Assembly (NCBI RefSeq): GCF_009931435.1
Contig: NZ_CP043414.1
DNA length: 64,000 nucleotides
Strand: one strand, 5' to 3'
DNA from: Escherichia coli
Lineage (GTDB): Bacteria > Pseudomonadota > Gammaproteobacteria > Enterobacterales > Enterobacteriaceae
Shown in pieces: positions 24,136 through 37,214 of this stretch. The first letter of the stretch is position 1. Every line of letters begins with the position of its first letter. The notes under the pieces were generated by a model. It was not told the origin of the DNA, did not search any database, and was given only the letters and a program-made list of their open reading frames with translations. A program made the translations under genes and the position numbers.

Positions 24136-24326
24136 TATTATTTAAATATATGGTGTAATCATTTGTATTCATAATATAAATGATTGCATCCTATTTTATT
24201 TGTTGAAACGCAAATGTAAGTGAGCGAAATCACTGTGTTATAAATTTAAGATTATATTTAGTTTTCCTGGCGTGCCTTTCTGAATAATCTGGAATAGAAT
24301 ATTAGAGCTAATTTTAAGCATTATTA
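24136..24326. promoter_or_regulatory. AT-rich leader/promoter region of the sinH-like island (left island boundary)
   Basis: About 190 nt of strongly AT-rich sequence (ttaatattatttaaatatatggtg...) directly upstream of the first island gene; contrasts with GC-rich flanking core genes. Confidence 0.4.
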
Positions 24327-26519
24327 ATGTCACAGGGGATGTGCATGCTGCGATGGAAACGCTGTATTATGCTAACATTTATCTCTGGAGCTGCTTTTGC
24401 GGCTCCAGAGATAAATGTTGAGCATAAAGAATCGTTACCTGATTTAGGTAGTCAGGCCGCACAACAGGAAGAGCAAACTAACAAGGGTAAATCGCTAAAA
24501 GAGCGTGGTGCCGATTACGTCATTAACTCTGCCACGCAAGGGTTTGAAAACCTCACACCCGAGGCGCTGGAGTCCCAGGCCAGAAGCTATCTGCAAAGTC
24601 AAATTACCTCTACGACACAATCTTATATTGAGGATACACTCTCCCCCTACGGTAAGGTCCGAACGAATCTTTCTCTTGGTCAGGGCGGCGATCTGGATGG
24701 CAGTTCCATCGACTATTTTGTTCCCTGGTATGATAATCAAACTACTGTTTATTTCAGCCAATTTTCTGCACAACGAAAAGAAGATCGTACGATCGGGAAT
24801 ATTGGGCTTGGTGTAAGACATAATTTTGATAGATGGTTATTGGGTGGAAATATATTTTATGATTATGATTTTACCCGTGGGCATCGCCGTTTAGGTTTAG
24901 GTGCCGAAGCCTGGACTGATTATTTAAAATTCTCTGGCAACTATTATCATCCGCTTTCTGACTGGAAAGACTCCGAAGATTTCGATTTTTATGAGGAGCG
25001 TCCTGCGCGCGGTTGGGATATTCGCGCCGAAGCCTGGCTACCTGCTTACCCGCAGCTTGGCGGTAAAATCGTTTTCGAACAGTATTACGGTGATGAAGTC
25101 GCGCTTTTTGGCACCGATAATCTGGAGAAAGATCCCTTCGCCGTCACGCTGGGTGTGAAATACCAGCCCGTACCGCTCATTGCCGTAGGAACGGATTTCA
25201 AAGCCGGCACTGGCGATAATACCGATCTTTCTGTTAACGCAACGCTGAACTACCAGTTTGGCGTCTCGCTCAAAGACCAGCTTGATCCTGACAAAGTAAG
25301 CGCGGCTCACTCGCTCATGGGCAGCCGTCACGACTTTGTTGAACGTAACAACTTTATTGTTCTGGAATACAAAGAGAAAGATCCCCTCGATGTCACTTTG
25401 TGGCTGAAAGCTGATGCGACGAATGAACATCCCGAGTGCGTGATTAAAGATACGCCAGAAGCAGCCATCGGGCTGGAAAAATGTAAGTGGACCATTAACG
25501 CGCTCATTAATCATCATTACAAAATCGTTGCTGCCTCCTGGCAGGCGAAAAACAATGCTGCACGTACGCTGGTGATGCCGGTTATCAAAGAAAATACGCT
25601 TACCGAAGGGAACAACAATCACTGGAATCTGGTGCTGCCTGCCTGGCAGTACAGCTCTGATAAAGCCGACCAGGAAAAACTCAATACCTGGCGGGTACGC
25701 CTGGCGCTGGAAGATGAAAAAGGCAATCGGCAGAACTCCGGCGTGGTGGAAATTACCGTTCAGCAGGACCGTAAAATTGAGCTCATTGTTAACAACATCG
25801 CCAATGTACCGGATGAGAACAATCACAGCCACGAAGCCAGCGCGCAAGCGGATGGTGTAGATGGTGTCGTCATGGATCTCGACGTTACCGATAGCTTTGG
25901 CGACAACACTGACCGTAACGGTAATGTCTTGCCGCAGGATAATCTCAGCCCGCAGCTGTTTGATGCCAACGATAAAAAAGTGACGCTGACGAATAAACCC
26001 TGCACCACCGAAGTGCCGTGCGTTTTTATCGTCAAACAAGATAAAGAAAAGGGGACCGTTACGCTCTCCAGTACGTTGCCCGGCACTTTCCGCTGGAAGG
26101 CGAAAGCCGCCCCTTATGATGACAGTAACTATGTTGACGTAACGTTCCTGGGTTCTGACATCGGCGGGCTGAATGCTTTTATCTACCGCGTTGGTGCAGC
26201 TAAGCCCGTCAATCTTATCGGCAACAAAGAACCGTTGCCTCTCAATAGCCGCTATCGCTTTGTGCTGTGGCGCGACGCTAACAAAGACGGCGTGTTCCAG
26301 CTTTCTGAGAAGCTCACTGACGATGAGATGAAACAGTATGACTATCAGTGGGAATTCACGGGGCATAGCGTAAATGGCAATACCGGTGCGCAAACCAATA
26401 CCACGAACGTCGATATAGAGATCCCGGCAACCAACAAGGAAGCGGCAGCAAAGTTTAGTGCCCAGGTAACCGATGGCGTGCAGGGATACGGTTTGCAGGT
26501 CAATTACAGCAAGAAATAG
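24327..26519 (+). CDS. sinH: Intimin/invasin-family outer-membrane protein (inverse autotransporter), SinH-like
   Basis: 730-aa ORF; signal-like N-terminus (alternative start at 24345, MLRWKRCIMLTFISGAAFA); central inverse-autotransporter-type beta-barrel region; located between yfgJ and xseA as in the Salmonella CS54-type island (from memory). Confidence 0.7.
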   Translation: MSQGMCMLRWKRCIMLTFISGAAFAAPEINVEHKESLPDLGSQAAQQEEQTNKGKSLKERGADYVINSATQGFENLTPEALESQARSYLQSQITSTTQSYIEDTLSPYGKVRTNLSLGQGGDLDGSSIDYFVPWYDNQTTVYFSQFSAQRKEDRTIGNIGLGVRHNFDRWLLGGNIFYDYDFTRGHRRLGLGAEAWTDYLKFSGNYYHPLSDWKDSEDFDFYEERPARGWDIRAEAWLPAYPQLGGKIVFEQYYGDEVALFGTDNLEKDPFAVTLGVKYQPVPLIAVGTDFKAGTGDNTDLSVNATLNYQFGVSLKDQLDPDKVSAAHSLMGSRHDFVERNNFIVLEYKEKDPLDVTLWLKADATNEHPECVIKDTPEAAIGLEKCKWTINALINHHYKIVAASWQAKNNAARTLVMPVIKENTLTEGNNNHWNLVLPAWQYSSDKADQEKLNTWRVRLALEDEKGNRQNSGVVEITVQQDRKIELIVNNIANVPDENNHSHEASAQADGVDGVVMDLDVTDSFGDNTDRNGNVLPQDNLSPQLFDANDKKVTLTNKPCTTEVPCVFIVKQDKEKGTVTLSSTLPGTFRWKAKAAPYDDSNYVDVTFLGSDIGGLNAFIYRVGAAKPVNLIGNKEPLPLNSRYRFVLWRDANKDGVFQLSEKLTDDEMKQYDYQWEFTGHSVNGNTGAQTNTTNVDIEIPATNKEAAAKFSAQVTDGVQGYGLQVNYSKK

Positions 26520-26574: not shown

Positions 26575-27567
26575 ATGAAACCTGATATGAAACGTGGCCT
26601 GACAAAAGTCGCGCTCGCGTTGATGCTGGCTGGATACTGTGCCGTACCAGCCGCTATGGCGGAAGATGCCGCCTGGGTCGCCAGTGGAGCGACCGCTGAA
26701 TTCGAAGGGACTATACCCTGGCTCTATCGCGAAGGGGGGAATGCCACGATTAACTCGGAAGATGCGGATCACATTAAAGTGACGTCTGATGGTAAAGGGA
26801 CCCGCCCTGCAGGTAGCGAGACGGATAAACGCCTTTACTCAGGGGATACCATCACGCTGGGATGGGATATCGGCGATACCGAAGGGGATGTTGATGATGG
26901 TCCCGCAGGCATTGATGCGAAAACGACGGCCACTATCAAATGGTACAGCTACAGCAATAATGCGGGTGGCGATAAAACGGAGCTGACCGCAGCGGCAGGC
27001 AAGACGAGTTATAAACTCACTGATGACGATCGTGGGCGTTATATCGGTGTTGAAATCCAGCCCATCACCCAGACCGGTAATCCCTTCGAGGGAACGTCGC
27101 TGACTCTGCTGGATATTTCAACGGCCAGCGGTGGCGGCAGCGATACGGACAATGTCGATCCCGGCCCGGTTGTGAACCAGAATCTGAAAGTTGCCATCTT
27201 CGAGAAAGGCACCACTACCAACCTTATCGGTGGTAACACGGCCATTGCGCTTAATAAAACGTATGTGGCCAAACTGTACTCGGATGAAAACCAGAACGAT
27301 AAATACGACGCAGGTACGGATATGGACGTTACCGCTAACTATGACTTTGCATGGGTCTTTAACGGTAACAGTAAACAACTTGCTGCGGCGGGCGGTATTG
27401 CTAATGCCAGCTTCGATAACAATGACATTGTTATCCCGCAAACTAACGAAGAAGCAAGAACCAGCCTTAATGGTAGTGACCGTAATGGTAAGAGTGGTCT
27501 TGCGATCCCGGCAAACGGCGACGGCGTTCAGGGCTATACGCTGTCTATCATTTACAAACACCACTAA
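26575..27567 (+). CDS. sinI: Secreted SinI-like protein, homologous to the SinH C-terminal module
   Basis: ORF 26569-27567; ATG at 26575 preceded by aaggag RBS; signal peptide MKPDMKRGLTKVALALMLAGYCAVPAAMA; C-terminal DGVQGYTLSIIYKHH parallels SinH C-terminal DGVQGYGLQVNYSKK. Confidence 0.65.
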   Translation: MKPDMKRGLTKVALALMLAGYCAVPAAMAEDAAWVASGATAEFEGTIPWLYREGGNATINSEDADHIKVTSDGKGTRPAGSETDKRLYSGDTITLGWDIGDTEGDVDDGPAGIDAKTTATIKWYSYSNNAGGDKTELTAAAGKTSYKLTDDDRGRYIGVEIQPITQTGNPFEGTSLTLLDISTASGGGSDTDNVDPGPVVNQNLKVAIFEKGTTTNLIGGNTAIALNKTYVAKLYSDENQNDKYDAGTDMDVTANYDFAWVFNGNSKQLAAAGGIANASFDNNDIVIPQTNEEARTSLNGSDRNGKSGLAIPANGDGVQGYTLSIIYKHH

Positions 27568-27576
27568 TGCGCACAA

Positions 27577-27606
27577 CAGCATTCCCATATGGGAATGCTG
27601 TTTTCC
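27577..27606 (+). terminator. Hairpin plus T-tract after sinI (cagcattcccatatgggaatgctg then ttttcc)
   Basis: Perfect palindrome 10 nt after sinI stop, followed by a T-run; a second long palindrome follows at 27608-27642. Confidence 0.5.
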
Positions 27607-27676
27607 GCCTGTTTTGCTTAGCGACGCGTTAAGCAAAACAGGTTGATGTTTTGTTTATCATGCTGGAGTTTTCTAC

Positions 27677-30600
27677 ATGTCGGTATGTCTGAAACCAGGG
27701 AAAATCATTATGCTTCTGGGCATGTTGGCAGCTTTTATGCTGTCTGACTTTGCACGGGCAGGGGCGGAATGGCAGACATATCCTGATTCTACAGGCGAGT
27801 TTAACGGAACCGTTCCTTTTGCCGACAGCGCCAGCGTACCCGTCTATCAGGGCAGTGTTCAGCTTAATCCTGCTGAATCTCATGATGTCGGGTTTTCTGC
27901 TAAACCGAATGAATTTAGTGTTGACGATGACGCTGCTAACCTGATTGTTGCTAATCCTCAGGACAATGAAGGCGACCAGTTTTCCACACCACCTGCGCTG
28001 CGCTGGGAAAATCAAACACCCCCTACCGTCAGCCTGGTGTGGGCCGATGCCGCCACGCCCGATGTGCCCCTTAACCCACAACCCATTGCTAACCGTAGCT
28101 TTTGCGCTCAGGGGCTCGCCGGACGCTCGCTGGTGGCCTGGCCGCAGATTGATGCGCAGCAAACCCTCCCACTGCTCTACCTGCTGACCTCGACCGGGTA
28201 TCCCTATGCGGGGACGGTGGCGCTGGTGGACCAGAAAGTGACCCTGAACATCGCGCCCGCGCAGGGCGATTTAATCTCGGTGAGCGCCAGCGGTTATAAC
28301 GAAACGATCGCGGCGGCAAAAACCACCGTTGGCGACACCATCACGCTCACCGTCACCACTAAAGATTGTCAGGGCAACGTCGCGGGTAATATTCCGTTTA
28401 TTATCAAACGTAAAGATGCTGAAAATCGCCAGGGGGCAGTGAATAATAGTGCGCCAGTGGTACTGGATAGCACCGAGTTAACGACGACGGCTACCGAATA
28501 CCATGGCACCTCTGATTCCAACGGCACGGCCACCATCACGGTGAGCCAACCGAACGGCCCTGGTGTCAAAACGCCACTGGTGGTCAGCATTTCCGGCATT
28601 GCGCAAACCAGCGAAACCGCAGTGATTTTTACCGTACTCACCAGCCCGGACGTGGCGCAGGCTACGATGTGGGGCCATATGGCGGAGACGGTAGAAGCCC
28701 ACGGTTACACCTTCAGTCGACCAAAGCTGGCGGCAGAAGTCAGCAATGAAAGCGCCACGGTTGTCGATCATAACGAAACCTGGTCCACCTTCACCTGGAG
28801 CGGCGCAGATAGCCACTGCACCGTGCTGCCCGGCATGCGCCACTTCGGCGCGCTGGCGACCGTTATCCCCACGTCGGTGCAGACAGCCCTTGGCTGGCCG
28901 ATGCAGGGGGATTATTACTGGTCATCGCTGGCGGGCACCACCGGGCAGCACCATGCGGCGGATGTCTCTAACCGTAGTGAAACGCAAAAGCCGGATAGCA
29001 CCCCGTTTCTTGTGAGCTGCGTGGATAAACCCGCGCCTGATGTCGAACCGAAAATCGTCCTTACGCCCGAAAACTATGATGATACGGCACAGGCGATGAA
29101 ATCGCAGGTGGGCGAAGACGCCACGATGCGTCTGACGATCACCGACAATAAAAATAACGATCAACCACTGGCGTATTACTACTTCTCGCTGCATCTGGAT
29201 GACGGCGTTAACCGCAAAAATCAAACCGATTCCGCCTGGGAAGCCCATCCGGTGCAGATTACTGGTGGTTCGAATTTACAACAGGTTGATGCTCACACCT
29301 ATGAAGGCATGACCGATGTCAACGGTCAGGCTTCGCTAACCCTGAGTCAGCCCGACGGCGCAGGCGTGAAAACCCATATCACGGCGAAAATGCGCAGCAA
29401 TTTTACGGCTACAGATGCCAAAGACGTGATTTTTACTGTGATCACCAGCCCGGACAGCGACAAGGCGCGGATGTGGGGCCATATGCGCGGCATTGTTGTA
29501 TCTGGCAGTCTGTTCAAACGCCCAGTGCTGGCGGATGAAACTGAGCATGAACTGGGATCGGTGCGGGAAAATGACGAAGACTGGGCGCTGTTCGATCAAG
29601 ACACCAGTATGCAGGCTGAATGCGGCGTCGGCCATACGCCACGTCAGAGTGGGCTGGAAAGCCTGTTTTCAGCCCATCCCGGTAACGCGATTGGCACTGA
29701 GTATGGCTGGCCCACCGCCCAACAGAGCTACTTAAGCGCGGTGGAGCAAGCCACGCATTCATCGGTGAATCTGGGGAACGGAAACGTCGACAGCTACTCC
29801 GGCTTTAAGCAGAATTACCTCTCCTGTTCGGGCAATGAGATGGTAGCGAAGGTTGAAGTCAGCACCGATCACGATATCACCCCTGGCAGCAAAGCGCAGG
29901 CCAAAGTAGGTGACACCATCGTGATGACCGTGCGTACGATTAACGCGCTCAATAATACCCCGGTACCCTTTACTGCATTCACCATTACCAAAGGCATGGG
30001 GTATAACCGAGCGGGGCTGGTGAGCGGGTTTGATGACCCGAGCAGCGGCGCAATCTCGATGAATGGCACGCAATACGGCACATCACAGCCGTCGATGGTC
30101 TACACAGGTACGACAGATGCACAAGGCGTGGCAACGGTCGAAATAGAGCAACCCCAGGGGGTGGGGTTAAGAACCGTGCTGAGCATTACGCCGGTCAATT
30201 CCCATCTACCAAATGCCATTAATTACAATGTTATTTTTACCACCCCAACCAGCCCGGATGTTAGTGGGGCGCAGATGTGGGGCCATATGGATGAAACGAT
30301 TACCGTTGATTCATTAACCTTTACCCGGCCTAAGCTGGCAGCAGAAATCGCCAGTCCGGATGGCACACTAACGGAAAAAAACGAAGTCTGGGCGCGCGTT
30401 AGCCAGGCCAGTACGGCCATTACCAGTAAAGGCGGTTGCGGAACCAATATGCTGCCGCGCCGCTCCCAGCTCAGTGCGCTTTATGACGCTAATAACGGTA
30501 ATGCGGTGCAAGCCACACACGGCTGGCCGACGCAGCGTCAGCCCTACTGGAGCAGTTCCCCCGCGGATTTAACGCCGCACAATTACACCATTGCCCTGGA

Positions 30601-33600
30601 TAACGGCGCACAGGCCATCGGCGGCGATACGCCGGTTTACGTCAGTTGCCTGACGACGGCGAACAAACCTGCCAGCAGCATTACGCTGGATGTGGTTGAT
30701 AACGCACAGTGGGCTGCCGGAAATAACGCGGCGAAGCTGAAAAAAGGCGAAACGCTACGGGTTAAGGTAACGGTAAAAGATGCGCAGGGTAATCCGCTCA
30801 CGGATATGCCATTTAAACTGAGTCGCGGAGACGGTTATACCCGCACGGGCGAAAAACATATTGCCGGTAGTGGCGATGCGCTGGTGGCACCGGTGGTGAT
30901 TAACAGTGGGCTGGCGGATGAAACGACGTTGAACGACACCGCGGGATTTTATACTGCCATGACCGGTAGCGACGGCAGCAAAATCCTCAATATTACCCGC
31001 CCGGATACTCACGGCACCAAAACGGCGCTGACGGCGACGTTGTATTCCGATCCAACAAAAAAAGACAGCCTGGATACAATCTTTACTGTGGTCACCAGCC
31101 CGGATAGTAGCAAAGCGAAAATGTGGGGGCATATGCCGGAAACGGTGACGGCTGCGGACGGTACGGTATTTAAACGCCCGCTGTTGTTGAAGGAACTGGC
31201 CTATCAGACTGGGCGAACATCGACGTCTGAAGACAATGAAAACTGGGCGTTGTTTAACATTAATTATGCGAGTTCTTCCACGACGTATAGTGGCTGTGGA
31301 ACCAACTATATTCCGACTCAAGCCGGTCTGACGTCACTGTTTGCTAATAATGCGGGCAACACCATGAAAACCGTGCAGGGCTGGCCGGTGGCAACACGCT
31401 ATTTGTCCAACACGTCCGACAACGGCAGCATGGAGCAGCGTAACTACAAGGCGGTAGATCTCAGCAATGGCACGAGTGCGGCAGTGTCATCAACGGCGCT
31501 GCAACTGCTGACCTGCCAGACCACGCCGGTAACCACGGTGGGCCAAATTCTGCTGGAAGCGGCAGATCCGGCGACGCTGGATACCACCTATAACGTGGTA
31601 AAAGCGAAAAAAGGCGAAGAATCCGTGGTGCGCGTCACCACCAAAGATACGCAAGGCAACCTGGTGGGCAATACGGCATTTATCCTGACGCGTGCCAACA
31701 GCGTGAGTCGGGCTAACGCATCAGCAACCGCGAGCGTGGGCGCGCTGACGGTGACGGATGCTTGGGGAAATACGCGAAATAATTTCCAGTCGACGAGTGA
31801 AACGATTTACGGCGTGACTGGTGCAGACGGGTCAACGACATTTACCCTGAAACAGGATAACAGTACCGGGTTAAGAACCGATCTCACGGCAAAACTGGAT
31901 ACGTCCAGCAGCGTCAAGGCGACGCTACCGGTGGTCTTTACTGTCGTGACCAGCCCGGATTCGCCAAAAGCGAATTTTTGGGGACATATGGCCGAAACGG
32001 TGATGGCCTCCGACGGTACAATCTATAAACGACCACTGTTGTTGAAAGAGCTGAGTAACACCAGTGGTCGAAATTCTACGGCTGAAAACGGTGAAGATTG
32101 GGCAAGATTCACCTGGACTCAGTCGGCTGACACCAGCATGAATGGGTGTGGTACAGATTATATGCCGACGCTGGATGGACTGAAGTCTTTGTATGACGCC
32201 AATAGCGGTAATGTGATGAGTACGGTGCAGGGATGGCCGGTAAAAACGACCTATCTCACCAATACCCCGAGTGATACGCAAACAGGGAGCCGTTACTACA
32301 ATGTGGTGCAACTGAATACTGGTGCAGTCTCACAAATCTCGACGAACACAGTCGTGCAACAAACCTGCCGCACAACGCCGTTGACGGCTGCTAGCCAGAT
32401 TACGCTGGAGGCCTCAGACCCCTCGCAATTTGTCAGCATTGACAGTACGCTTAGCGCGATCAAAGTGCAGAAAGGCGATAGCGTGTCGATCCGCATTTCG
32501 ACTAAAGATGCACAGGGGAATTTAGTCGGCAATACGCCGTTTGCCCTGAAACACGCTAACCCGGTCAATCGCCAAAATGTGGCGTCAACATCGCAGAAAG
32601 TGTCGGTCACGACTGCGTCGGGTACGACGGTGGATACCACTGCATCGACCATTCTGTATGGCGTGACCGGGCCAGACGGAACCACCACGATGACACTCCG
32701 ACAGGATGTGTCTACTGGACTCAAAACCGACTTTTATGCTCTGTTGAACGATACCGGCGTGTCGTCGAACACCTTGCCAGTGATCTTCACCGTCGTCACC
32801 AGCCCGGATACACCGCTGGCGGCCAACTGGGGGCATATGGCGGAAACCTTTACCAGCAGCAAGGGCGTCACCTTCAAACGGCCTTTCCTCAAAGCTGAAC
32901 TTTCTGGTGGTACGGCGGTAACGACCAATAATGAAGTCTGGTCGCGCCTGACAGCAACGGAGAAAACGGATGCCAGCAAGGCTGGGTGTGATGAGAGTTA
33001 TCAACCGCTGATGACTGACATGCAGGGGTTGTATGCGGATTACCCTAACAACCAGTTGGGCACGGTGCTCGGCTTGCCGACTTCCGCCGGGTATATGTGG
33101 GCCTACGACATGATGACGGTTTCTGGCAGCAGCTGGAGCAACCAGGCATATTCGCTCGTTAATGGTCAGACAGTTCAGGCATCGTCCAGTTATACGGCGG
33201 TAGTGATGTGCCTGGTGGAACCGCATACCGTTCCGGCGATGATAGAGATCACTTCAACAGCACAGGATGCGGCAAAAACGGTCAGCAATGGTGGTCGACC
33301 GAGCGCCGTAGCGAAGAAAGGTGAGACGATTCCGCTGACGGTGACCGTACGTGATAGCACCGGGAATCCGGTACCCTACGCCGACTTTACCCTCACGCGT
33401 GGAACGACGCTGGATCGCTCGAAAGCAACCGTTAACTCGAGTGCGGACGATCTTACCGTGAAGTCATTGATACCCGCGAACAGCGACGCTGGGCTGACGG
33501 CAAATGGGGCAAAAGTGCTCAGAACAACGGGCAGTGATGGCACAGCCACCTTTGAAGTGAGCCAGAATGCCACGACAGGTCTGGCGACACCGATAACCGT

Positions 33601-35761
33601 CACGCTGGCGCGCGATACAACCAAAACCGCCACGCTGGATGTTATCTACACGGTGATAACCAGCCCGGACTCACCGAGCGCGAAATTCTGGGGATACATG
33701 CCGGACACCTTTACCAGTTCGGCAGGCGTCACCTTCAGACGACCGCTCCTGAAAGCCGAAGCGACTTCAGGGTCATCGATTAGCACTAACGGCAATGGTG
33801 AAGTGTGGTCGTATATGAGCAACGTTCAAAATTTAACATCGACAGATTGTCCGCTGGAGAATCAACCGCGCAGTAATGAATTGTTGGATTTGTATAATGA
33901 TCATCCCAACGGCGCGATAATGACTGACCTGGGGCTGCCGATATATGCAGGCAAGTGGTGGGCTTATGATATGGTCATGCCGGATTTATATACGTGGCAG
34001 TATCAGACTGTCAGCCTGAGCGCAGGAGATATCGCGAAGAGCTCGGCAAACAACGCGCTGATGCTTTGCCTGGCGAAGCCGCATCCGGCAGGCGTCAGCG
34101 TAATGTTGACGTCATCCGCAATGGATAACGCCAGAACCCTCAGTAATGGCGGGCGACCCAGCGCGTCAGTGAAAAAAGGTAACCCACTGCCAATTGTGGT
34201 GACGGTCAAAGATCGTGATGGCAACCCGCTGGCGGGAGAGGCCGTTACGCTCAGGCGTGGTTCAGCGATGAGCCGTTCAGGAGCAGGAGTGGGCACGCCG
34301 GCAAATGCAATGACGTTGACAGAGTTGACACCTGTGTCGGCGGAGTTTTCTCTGGCCGCACACGATACGCAATGGCAAGGTTTCACCGGCAGTGATGGTA
34401 CGGCCACTTTCAATGTTGAACAGCCTGAGACCATCGGCCTGGCCATTCCGTTCACCGCTATACTGGCGCGAGATGTCGCAACTACCAGCGTCCTTGATAC
34501 GATCTTTACCGTCGTCACCAGCCCGGATTCCGCAATGGCGACCTACTGGGGCCATATGCCGGATACGGTAACGGCGGAAAACGGCGTGGTCTTTGAACGG
34601 CCTAAATTGTTGAAAGAGCTGCCGTCGAGCGCCGGAGTCAGTCAGGTGACGGATAACAATGAAGTGTGGCCGTTGTTTAAGGCAACGCAAAGGGAAGATA
34701 GCAGCCTCAGTCCTTGTGAAGCGGCACGTCGGCCATTGAGCGATGATTTATTATCGCTCTACGCGCGCTATCCGGGGAACACGCTGACGACTCAAATCGG
34801 CTGGTCTACGAAGTATGCATGGTGGGCACTGGATAACAAGCAGGGGAATGCCCTGGTTGTCAGTCTGAATAATGGTTTTGAGTCGTCGACGGCGAGTACG
34901 GGGTATCAGGGATGTCTGGTCAATCCCCGCGCGACCGTCTCCAGCGTCACGCTGACATCGACGGTGATAGATGCCACTACGCAGGCGGCGAAGGTAAAAA
35001 AAGGTGAAGCCGCGCCCGTCGTTGTTACCGTAAAAGACAGCGCCGGGAAGCCGGTACCGAATGTCGCTTTCACCTTAAAACGTGGTGATGCCGTGCCGCG
35101 TAACAGCGGGGCGACGTTGTATGGTGATGTTGCGGCGATGGATGATATGACGGTACAACCTGCCAGCGGGACGGTGGTAACGCTGGCTGACAGTGGGAAT
35201 ACGATCGACGGTGTGACAGGGGCGGACGGTACGGCAAGTTTTGCCGTTCGTCAGGATAATACGCCAGGATATAAAACGCCGTTGACGGTGACGCTGACGG
35301 ATAACGCCACAATAACGGCGACGCTGGATACGATTTTCACCGTGCCGACCAGCCCGAATGTCGCCACGGCGTATTTCTGGGGGCATATGGCGGATACCGC
35401 CACCGTAAGTGGCAAGACGTTACATCGCCCGCTATTGCAATCAGAGTTGCCGTCAGGGGCTACAGCGGCAGTAGCGCCAACGGTGAATAATGAAATCTGG
35501 GCGCTGGCACATGTGATCGATGCTCAAAAATGGGATATTGCAAAGCAGTGCGGTGACTTTAGTAGAGCACCGAGCTATACCGATTTACAGTCGTTACATA
35601 GCAGCTTTAGCGCGCTGGGATGGCCATCATCGATAAGCTTCCCCTATTTCTCTACCGATCGGGCCGGTTCGTTCTATTGTGGCATGGATGAAGGGGCGGG
35701 GACACAAAACTGCGGTATTCAGGCATCCAGTACTGCGGGGTTTGCAACCTGTTTCCAGTAG
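27677..35761 (+). CDS. ratA: Giant RatA/RatB-like repetitive surface or secreted protein (Big_1-type Ig-like domains)
   Basis: 2694-aa uninterrupted ORF; N-terminal signal ([17 protein letters not shown]); nine tandem repeats each with a Big_1-like strand (e.g. [13 protein letters not shown]), a TSPD motif and a WGHM motif; last gene of island, convergent with xseA. Confidence 0.65.
28640..35400 (+). repeat. Nine tandem, divergent coding repeats (period 804-861 nt) inside the ratA-like gene
   Basis: The tgg-ggN-cat/tac-atg (WGHM/WGYM) motif recurs at 28670, 29474, 30278, 31124, 31979, 32828, 33689, 34547, 35378; each is preceded by accagcccgga (TSPD). Confidence 0.85.
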
Positions 35762-35816
35762 TCTTAACGGGTCTGTAAATGGGGGCCAAGATGTAAATAA
35801 GATTCGCAATACGTCA

Positions 35817-37214
<1,398 letters not shown>

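Follow-up and report, generated by a model that had tools for sequence, protein, structure and literature searches.

The window analysed here, a 64,000-nt stretch of Escherichia coli contig NZ_CP043414.1, carries two successive palindromes between the genes sinI and ratA, and both are part of a single conserved cis-acting RNA element of ~72 nt (27575-27646) in the sinI-ratA intercistronic spacer. Genes in this part of the window run in the order rlmN-rodZ-ispG-hisS-yfgM-bamB-der-zinc-ribbon gene, then sinH-sinI-ratA-like, then xseA (minus strand)-guaB-guaA; RefSeq gene names were taken via strain 2020CK-00188, which is 100% identical to the window across the compared stretch. The locus is the E. 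coli sinH-sinI-ratA adhesin cluster, the counterpart of the Salmonella CS54 island. In uropathogenic E. coli the cluster is named ila (PMC12928451), and SinH of the E. coli cluster is also named IatB (PMC6714894). Control by LeuO/H-NS has been reported for the locus, with LeuO acting on sinH/iatB (PMC6714894). The features of the cluster and of the element, with the source of each in brackets, are as follows; hp1 and hp2 denote the first and second hairpin, ORF an open reading frame, and RBS a ribosome-binding site.

24327-26519, plus strand: sinH (iatB), encoding an intimin-like inverse autotransporter; first gene of the cluster (ORF list and RefSeq annotation)
26575-27567, plus strand: sinI, encoding a SinI-family autotransporter-associated protein; TAA stop at 27565-27567 (ORF list and RefSeq)
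27575-27602, plus strand: hp1, with core stem CAGCAUUCCC / GGGAAUGCUG (27577-27586 / 27591-27600) and loop AUAU at 27587-27590 (folds)
27601-27607, plus strand: U-run and linker UUUUCCG, serving both as hp1 tail and as the 5′ clamp strand that pairs with 27643-27646 (alignment)
27608-27642, plus strand: hp2, with 5′ arm 27608-27623, loop ACG 27624-27626 and 3′ arm 27627-27642 (folds)
27643-27646, plus strand: invariant (G)UUGA just past hp2, the 3′ clamp strand onto the U-run and linker (alignment)
27665-27679, plus strand: RBS of ratA, GGAG at 27665-27668, and its ATG at 27677-27679 (sequence; the start agrees with RefSeq)
27677-35761, plus strand: ratA-like giant adhesin gene, 2694 amino acids, with BIg21/InvE_AD repeats (ORF list and RefSeq)

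The RefSeq start of sinH lies six codons inside the start given in the ORF list, and RefSeq labels the 8-kb ratA-like product an ‘adhesion domain-containing protein’.

Both palindromes, which had been noticed in a first-pass annotation of the letters, are present at exactly the positions given there. Hp1 (CAGCATTCCCATATGGGAATGCTG, 27577-27600) is a perfect 24-nt palindrome whose core begins 9 nt past the sinI stop, and it is followed by TTTTCC (27601-27606). Hp2 (CCTGTTTTGCTTAGCGACGCGTTAAGCAAAACAGG) ends 35 nt from the ratA-like ATG at 27677, as the same annotation had claimed. The folding check that it had proposed also came out clearly: both hairpins fold far beyond shuffled sequences, with z about -6.5 (-6.3 to -6.8 overall, equalled by 0 of 200 shuffles). 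Hp1 is predicted to form a 12-bp stem with a 4-nt loop (-23.6 kcal/mol, z -6.6, 0/200 shuffles as good), comprising a core with six G-C pairs and, beyond it, two outer A-U pairs (27575-76 / 27601-02). Hp2 is predicted to pair over 17 bp, one of them G·U, around a 3-nt loop (-26.1 kcal/mol, z -6.3, 0/200 shuffles as good). The Shine-Dalgarno sequence and start codon of ratA lie outside both hairpins and are not sequestered in the fold.

The two hairpins are single-copy. Each is unique in the window when up to three mismatches are allowed (0 expected), and no partner for the arms of hp2 was found elsewhere in the window. Perfect Watson-Crick hairpins of at least 10 bp number six in the 64 kb, compared with 0.5 in shuffles, and hp1 is among them; another is a perfect 10-bp palindrome in the coding sequence of sinI (GATAACAATGaCATTGTTATC, 27415-27435). 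When each hairpin was searched by BLAST in 5426 complete E. coli genomes, one site per genome was returned, always the sinI-ratA junction, with any match in 784 and 1691 genomes for the two queries; the ‘two places’ that BLAST gives per genome are both strands of one palindrome. An Rfam 15 scan of 27000-28200, with E values up to 10, gave best scores of 11-20 bits, compared with gathering thresholds of 38-100, and no E value below 0.58. Nor did we find any mention of these sinI-ratA hairpins in the literature searched.

SinI homologues identified equivalent loci in Escherichia albertii, Pseudocitrobacter corydidari, faecalis and cyperus, the Enterobacteriaceae isolate G50 and a divergent E. 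coli allele, as well as in Salmonella enterica, S. bongori, Citrobacter, Superficieibacter and Leminorella. A pattern scan for the hp2 core added Citrobacter sp. FP75, C. youngae, a metagenome-assembled genome of Pseudocitrobacter and more E. coli alleles. All of these loci are syntenic, with sinH, sinI and a giant gene with BIg21/InvE_AD repeats, and the sinI-ratA spacer measures 91-128 nt except in alleles bearing a bacterial interspersed mosaic element (BIME). The unit of hp1, UUU(U)CCGC, hp2 and GUUGA occurs in every Enterobacteriaceae locus found, with a length of 71 nt (±1), so that the genera with the element at this junction are Escherichia, Salmonella, Citrobacter, Pseudocitrobacter and Superficieibacter. 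Hp1 starts 8-13 nt past the sinI stop across taxa. In Leminorella (Budviciaceae), the sense strand still forms hp1 and an adjacent second hairpin, with a U-run after the first and a UUUC:GAAG clamp, and the sequence of hp2 is different; the two-hairpin architecture therefore appears to be old. In Leminorella grimontii (L015:3970-4060), a 21-nt insert extends the apex of hp2, and the run of U is a longer one (GCUUUUUCUCGUUUUG).

The element is better conserved than the genes around it. Between the window and Salmonella/Citrobacter, nucleotide identity is 69-76% in the element, compared with 57-60% in sinI (43-45% for the SinI protein), 58-63% in the first 600 nt of ratA and 42-53% in the remaining spacer. 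The least conserved part of the junction is the stretch from GUUGA to the Shine-Dalgarno sequence; GCTGGAG and ATGTC at the start of ratA are kept within the Escherichia/Pseudocitrobacter clade. We aligned 17 distinct junctions from four genera (alignment A4) and built a covariance model from them. This model recovers the Superficieibacter junction, which is outside the training set, at 74.8 bits, and the sinI-ratA junction is its sole match in each locus searched, including the 64-kb window. Consistent with this, no similar element was found at sinH-sinI, at the 3′ end of ratA or at ratA-ratB in Salmonella, the last junction giving no match when the model was run on a 21-kb Salmonella stretch. 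The hp2 core pattern, scanned over 100,044 species genomes, gave at least 120 matches, mostly chance AT-rich palindromes in unrelated phyla; among the matches listed, six are real junctions (Citrobacter, Pseudocitrobacter and Escherichia), all of them sinI-ratA. Since the hp2 pattern is too permissive, absence of the element elsewhere is unproven by that scan. We conclude that, across the loci searched, the element is confined to the sinI-ratA junction.

At one site, der/yfgJ-xseA, E. coli carries the sinH-sinI-ratA island in no fewer than four strongly diverged allelic forms (the window, L003, L016, L104 and L010). SinI protein identity across these alleles is 43-97%, and no piece of the island is better conserved among them than the hairpin element. 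One allele type is present in 752 genomes and the B2/ATCC 25922 type in ~939. Two kinds of natural variant interrupt hp1. In E. coli 23CRST027 (L017:3795-3985) and Escherichia sp. E1V33 (L132), a ~180-nt insert lies inside hp1 at the equivalent of window ~27600; it carries two inverted repetitive extragenic palindromic (REP) sequences, is BIME-like, and is flanked by a ~20-nt partial duplication of hp1. The uninterrupted form of this allele is found in E. coli E69 (L104), and the allele group is present in ~32 E. coli genomes. In E. coli L1PEag1 (L002:1668-1750), hp1 has lost its 5′ arm and loop through a 28-nt deletion between two AATGC direct repeats, equivalent to window 27566-27593; the annotation of this strain gives ratA as a pseudogene containing an internal stop. 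Both variants are ready-made test cases for the function of the element.

Substitutions among the 17 aligned junctions preserve the pairing. Over 29 pairs (492 cells), standard pairs make up 97.0% of cells, compared with 88.7 ± 0.9% in shuffles (0/500 as high), and the covariation score is 0.305, compared with 0.147 in shuffles (0/500 as high). Twelve of the 29 pairs are changed on both sides; when the partner is slid by 1-3 columns, only 0-4 are. In hp1, 100% of cells are paired and compensatory changes occur at seven of the ten pairs, the arms taking the forms CAGCAUUCCC/GGGAAUGCUG, UACCACUCCC/GGGAGUGGUA, GACCAUCCCU/AGGGAUGGUC, CGCCAUUCCC/GGGAAUGGCG and ACCGCUUCC/GGGAGCGGU. The loop of hp1 is variable (AUAU, GUAU, UGGC, CGCG and the stable tetraloops GCAA and UUCG). 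In hp2, the four basal pairs covary, as do pairs close to the apex. It has been a simpler possibility that the palindromes arose by chance or are copies of a dispersed repeat (REP/BIME, enterobacterial repetitive intergenic consensus or miniature inverted-repeat transposable element) with no local function, and palindromic repeats are indeed common in intergenic DNA of E. coli. That explanation is refuted by the single site per genome in 5426 E. coli genomes together with the covariation across genera, and we give it practically no weight. The element contains no REP consensus, unlike the true REPs of 23CRST027, and membership of the REP/BIME class was rejected on the same single site per genome and on the uniqueness of both sequences in the window.

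The pattern of substitution also identifies the strand on which the pairing matters. Non-Watson-Crick cells comprise 49 G·U and only 2 A·C. Because a G·U on the plus strand is a C·A mismatch on the minus strand, pairing has been kept for the mRNA-sense strand only: 97% of cells are able to pair on the plus strand, compared with 87% on the minus strand, and the plus strand folds better, by 1-12 kcal/mol, in 17 of 17 sequences. In the window, hp2 is weaker on the minus strand (-20.9 kcal/mol, compared with -26.1 on the plus strand) because it holds one G·U. We conclude that the hairpin pair is maintained by selection as an RNA structure of the mRNA sense.

This result bears directly on whether the palindromes act as DNA, whether as an operator bound by a dimeric regulator (LeuO, for instance, through a LysR-type T-N11-A box), as a recombination site or as a cruciform. 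The hp2 core does form an invariant inverted repeat with T-N11-A (TTTGCTTAG...CTAAGCAAA), LeuO control of sinH/iatB has been reported (PMC6714894), and a BIME has inserted into hp1 in one lineage. However, the excess of G·U over A·C restricts pairing to the plus strand, the compensatory changes in hp1 and the base of hp2 keep pairing rather than sequence, and the spacing of the hp2 half-sites varies by 1-2 nt in Enterobacteriaceae and by ~18 nt in Leminorella. An action at the DNA level is thus very improbable. A DNA operator palindrome was accordingly rejected as a class for the element, the two strands being unequal and the apex variable in length, and the protein-binding site that the first-pass annotation had offered as one option is, if taken as a site on DNA, disfavoured on the same grounds of strand asymmetry and variable spacing at the apex of hp2.

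Not all of the element evolves in the manner of hp1. The centre of hp2 (UUUGCUUA / UAAGCAAA, 8-9 bp), the linker and GUUGA show no variation in 18 Enterobacteriaceae junctions, and UUU(U)CCGC is near-invariant in the 17 aligned ones. Since eight invariant pairs running would be very unlikely at the rate of change seen in hp1, the hp2 core seems to be read as sequence, and, given this invariance, a protein may recognise hp2 at the RNA level. A further-reaching possibility is that hp2 or the whole unit is a specifically recognised regulatory RNA, either an antiterminator resembling put or EAR, which would make polymerase resistant to Rho and to intrinsic terminators over the 8-kb ratA (~20 kb for ratA-ratB-shdA in Salmonella), or the site of an RNA-binding regulator. 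The invariance of the hp2 centre, linker and GUUGA, while hp1 covaries freely, points towards sequence-specific recognition. There is in addition a superficial likeness to put, in that a ~70-nt unit with two stem-loops stands before a very long gene (PMC9378689, PMC11658703).

The likeness to put, EAR and canT (PMC9378689, PMC11658703) is one of architecture only: ~70 nt, adjacent stem-loops, and a position ahead of a long transcription unit. The put RNA of phage HK022 is a cis-acting RNA of ~70 nt with two stem-loops, whose bulged, irregular stems and triplex contact the zinc-binding domain of the β′ subunit (PMC9378689). The sinI-ratA element, unlike put, has regular, perfect helices with neither bulges nor a triplex, its first hairpin resembles a terminator rather than a polymerase-binding arm, and its position is intercistronic, not promoter-proximal. 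Membership of put was rejected, since the covariance model had no put match in the HK022 genome; its sole match there scored 16.9 bits. That match (L140:28192-28229, minus strand) is an hp2-like hairpin, CTTTTTTGCTTTT-agtcac-AAAAAGCAAAG followed by TTTTT, and has the appearance of a normal terminator of the leftward early region; it is not put. The lack of an Rfam match, the different hp2 core sequence in Leminorella and the lack of any candidate binding partner encoded in the island also count against specific recognition. We therefore regard as distinctly improbable the idea that the hp2 core (UUUGCUUA/UAAGCAAA), linker and GUUGA mark a recognised RNA switch rather than a passive hairpin. 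We are just as doubtful of the two forms that such a switch might take, namely a put/EAR-like licence to transcribe a giant ratA sensitive to Rho and H-NS, or a protein or RNase site giving conditional read-through. If it were true, the element would represent a new class of RNA controlling giant adhesin genes in Enterobacteriaceae.

The invariant blocks flanking hp2 have a structural counterpart. The linker UUCCGC is complementary to GUUGA, and in 17 of 17 junctions the clamp is kept as U-A, C-G and G·U pairs. Owing to this complementarity, the U-run would be drawn into an extended helix of ~20-23 bp once hp2 has been transcribed, comprising the 16-17 bp of hp2 and 3-6 bp of clamp across one unpaired position. 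With the clamp formed, the predicted folds leave hardly any of the spacer single-stranded. Alternative pairings of an antiterminator type (27630-27640 / 27647-27657 and GGGAA:UUUCC) are not kept in other taxa.

No promoter was recognised that could serve ratA independently. In four divergent alleles, a scan covering the final 500 nt of sinI and the spacer up to the ratA ATG found no sigma-70-like promoter, and none is conserved there. The invariant TTGA past hp2 has no -10 partner at 16-18 nt, and comparison by eye with consensus motifs for sigma-54, sigma-32 and sigma-E gave no fit upstream of ratA. Because there is no room for a promoter after the hairpins and none is conserved, ratA is probably transcribed by read-through from upstream. 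An opposing explanation is that the sinH-sinI operon is closed by the hairpins, acting as two efficient terminators in tandem, which would leave ratA to an unrecognised promoter or essentially silent. In its favour, T-rich sequence follows both hairpins in the window, where hp2 is called terminator-like, and the locus, AT-rich upstream, has reported LeuO/H-NS control (PMC6714894). However, only 34 nt separate hp2 from the ATG, and 22 nt from the Shine-Dalgarno sequence, and this stretch is not conserved. In the four divergent alleles no sigma-70-like promoter was found there or towards the 3′ end of sinI, conservation does not extend to the T-rich tail of hp2, and ratA is an intact 8-kb ORF in most genomes. 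We consider efficient tandem termination improbable.

Given sense-strand hairpins maintained by selection in a spacer that lacks a conserved promoter, an effect on the expression of ratA relative to sinH/sinI is the natural reading. In these broad terms, that the unit is a cis-acting RNA element setting relative ratA expression, we think the interpretation likely to be correct. Its more specific form is that hp1 is a leaky intra-operon terminator and 3′-end stabiliser, and that hp2 pairs up the U-tract on read-through RNA; we would put the chances of this form as about even. According to this model, transcription from the sinH promoter would meet hp1, with its stem of 10-12 bp, tetraloop and run of three to five U, and a fraction of polymerases would stop there, yielding a sinH-sinI mRNA with a protective 3′ hairpin. 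Polymerases that read through would transcribe hp2, which together with its flanks (UUCCGC:GUUGA) would pair up the U-run and make the whole spacer double-stranded. A fully paired spacer would offer no single-stranded U-rich RNA to RNase E or Rho; alternatively, it would offer a ~20-bp duplex for processing by RNase III. RatA would then be translated from its own RBS, 23 nt past hp2, and the net result would be a fixed ratio, with SinH/SinI high and RatA low, that needs no separate ratA promoter.

Several features of hp1 are consistent with leaky termination. Its stem is GC-rich, stable tetraloops (GCAA, UUCG) occur among its variants, and a U-run lies directly 3′ of the stem; this run has three to five U in all taxa and always directly adjoins the stem. 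The stems and loops of both hp1 and hp2 are in the size range of intrinsic terminators (GC-containing stem of ~5-20 bp, loop of 3-8 nt). There is also evidence that weighs against the leaky-terminator model. The U-run is short, with four U in the window, three in the B2-type E. coli allele and C. youngae, and five in Citrobacter FP75. A simple terminator scan, which requires at least five T in the 8 nt 3′ of the stem, calls hp1 in none of four loci (the window, L011, L016 and L007); in the window it goes uncalled because its tail (TTTTCCGC) has four T in eight. Hp2 is called terminator-like in the window only, its U-rich tail is not conserved, and the B2-type E. coli and Pseudocitrobacter loci yield a call for neither hairpin. 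The promoter scan covered sigma-70 consensus sites only, and the invariance of the hp2 core, linker and GUUGA is unexplained by a role in structure alone. In the literature searched we found no transcript 3′-end or mapping data for the junction in E. coli or Salmonella, and two Salmonella transcriptome supplements have no ratA or sinI entries. Finally, the BIME insert parts hp1 from the linker in natural alleles that retain an intact ratA, which indicates that termination at hp1 is not indispensable. The first-pass annotation had proposed a partial terminator plus a second structure. The part of this proposal that concerns the hairpins holds, in that they are maintained as RNA; the part that concerns termination is plausible but less secure, the U-run being only 3-5 nt and hp1 falling short of the scan rule.

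The weakness of the U-run as part of a terminator is one reason to consider a role in RNA processing or stability only, with no termination. Cleavage of hp2 and its clamp (~20-23 bp) by RNase III, or of the linker by RNase E, would yield a sinHI mRNA ending in hp1, shielded from 3′ exonucleases, and the ratA mRNA would differ from it in half-life. Any role at the RNA level would be compatible with the covariation and with the sense-strand G·U pattern, and the 16-17-bp stem of hp2 is lengthened by the invariant UUCCGC:GUUGA clamp, or by UUUC:GAAG in Leminorella. However, the constant U-run directly past hp1 is left unexplained except as a partner of the clamp, and the duplex of hp2 and its clamp is about as short as RNase III substrates can be. 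We judge processing without termination to be a credible but unlikely account, ahead of the other rivals.

Comparison with described systems suggests where the element would belong. Leaky terminators within adhesin and toxin operons include the hairpin after papA in the pap operon and the terminator between hlyA and hlyB. By analogy, these terminators, together with stabiliser hairpins of such operons, would be closest in function to the sinI-ratA element. As in the papA and hlyA-hlyB cases, a stable hairpin with a U-run lies inside an operon, just past one gene and before genes needed less, with no promoter downstream and in the setting of a surface-adhesin cluster. It differs from those cases in its short U-run of 3-5 U and in a second conserved hairpin, directly after the first, that pairs with this run; in addition, no partner of the RfaH/ops type is seen at sinH-sinI-ratA. 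Intercistronic stabiliser hairpins are exemplified by the REP between malE and malF and by the hairpins of the puf operon. The stem-loop between sinI and ratA could likewise shield the upstream mRNA from 3′ exonucleases and so produce unequal expression. In contrast to the malE-malF REP, the element is single-copy, has another sequence, is specific to its locus, and has two hairpins with invariant blocks. Hairpins processed by RNase III in polycistronic RNAs, such as those of the T7 early region and rpsO-pnp, share with it a near-continuous duplex of ~20 bp or more between cistrons; they differ in that the duplex here is of borderline length and known from predicted folds, and in that hp1 is too short to be a substrate.

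Taken as a whole, the element appears to be a cis-RNA motif of a familiar general kind, the unusual part being its sequence-constrained second hairpin, and the comparative evidence makes the two-hairpin unit a well-supported candidate for a new Rfam family. A 72-nt RNA element under stronger constraint than the proteins around it offers a handle on the expression of ratA relative to sinH/sinI. The homologous CS54 island matters for gut colonisation by Salmonella. SinH is a vaccine candidate, and sinH-sinI-ratA (ila) contributes to urinary-tract infection by extraintestinal pathogenic E. coli (PMC9937491; PMC12928451).

Elsewhere in the cluster, folding revealed no significant structure at the sinH-sinI junction or at the 3′ end of ratA (z ~0.3). 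The gap between ratA and the convergent xseA is 55 nt (35761-35817) and has no significant hairpin on either strand (z ~0.3); the giant ratA gene is without a recognisable terminator of its own. At the other end of the cluster, an 18-bp AT-rich hairpin (24152-24190) lies just past the stop of the zinc-ribbon gene, and very AT-rich DNA continues from there to the sinH ATG. This AT-rich stretch upstream of sinH (24136-24326) is probably the H-NS/LeuO-controlled promoter region (PMC6714894).

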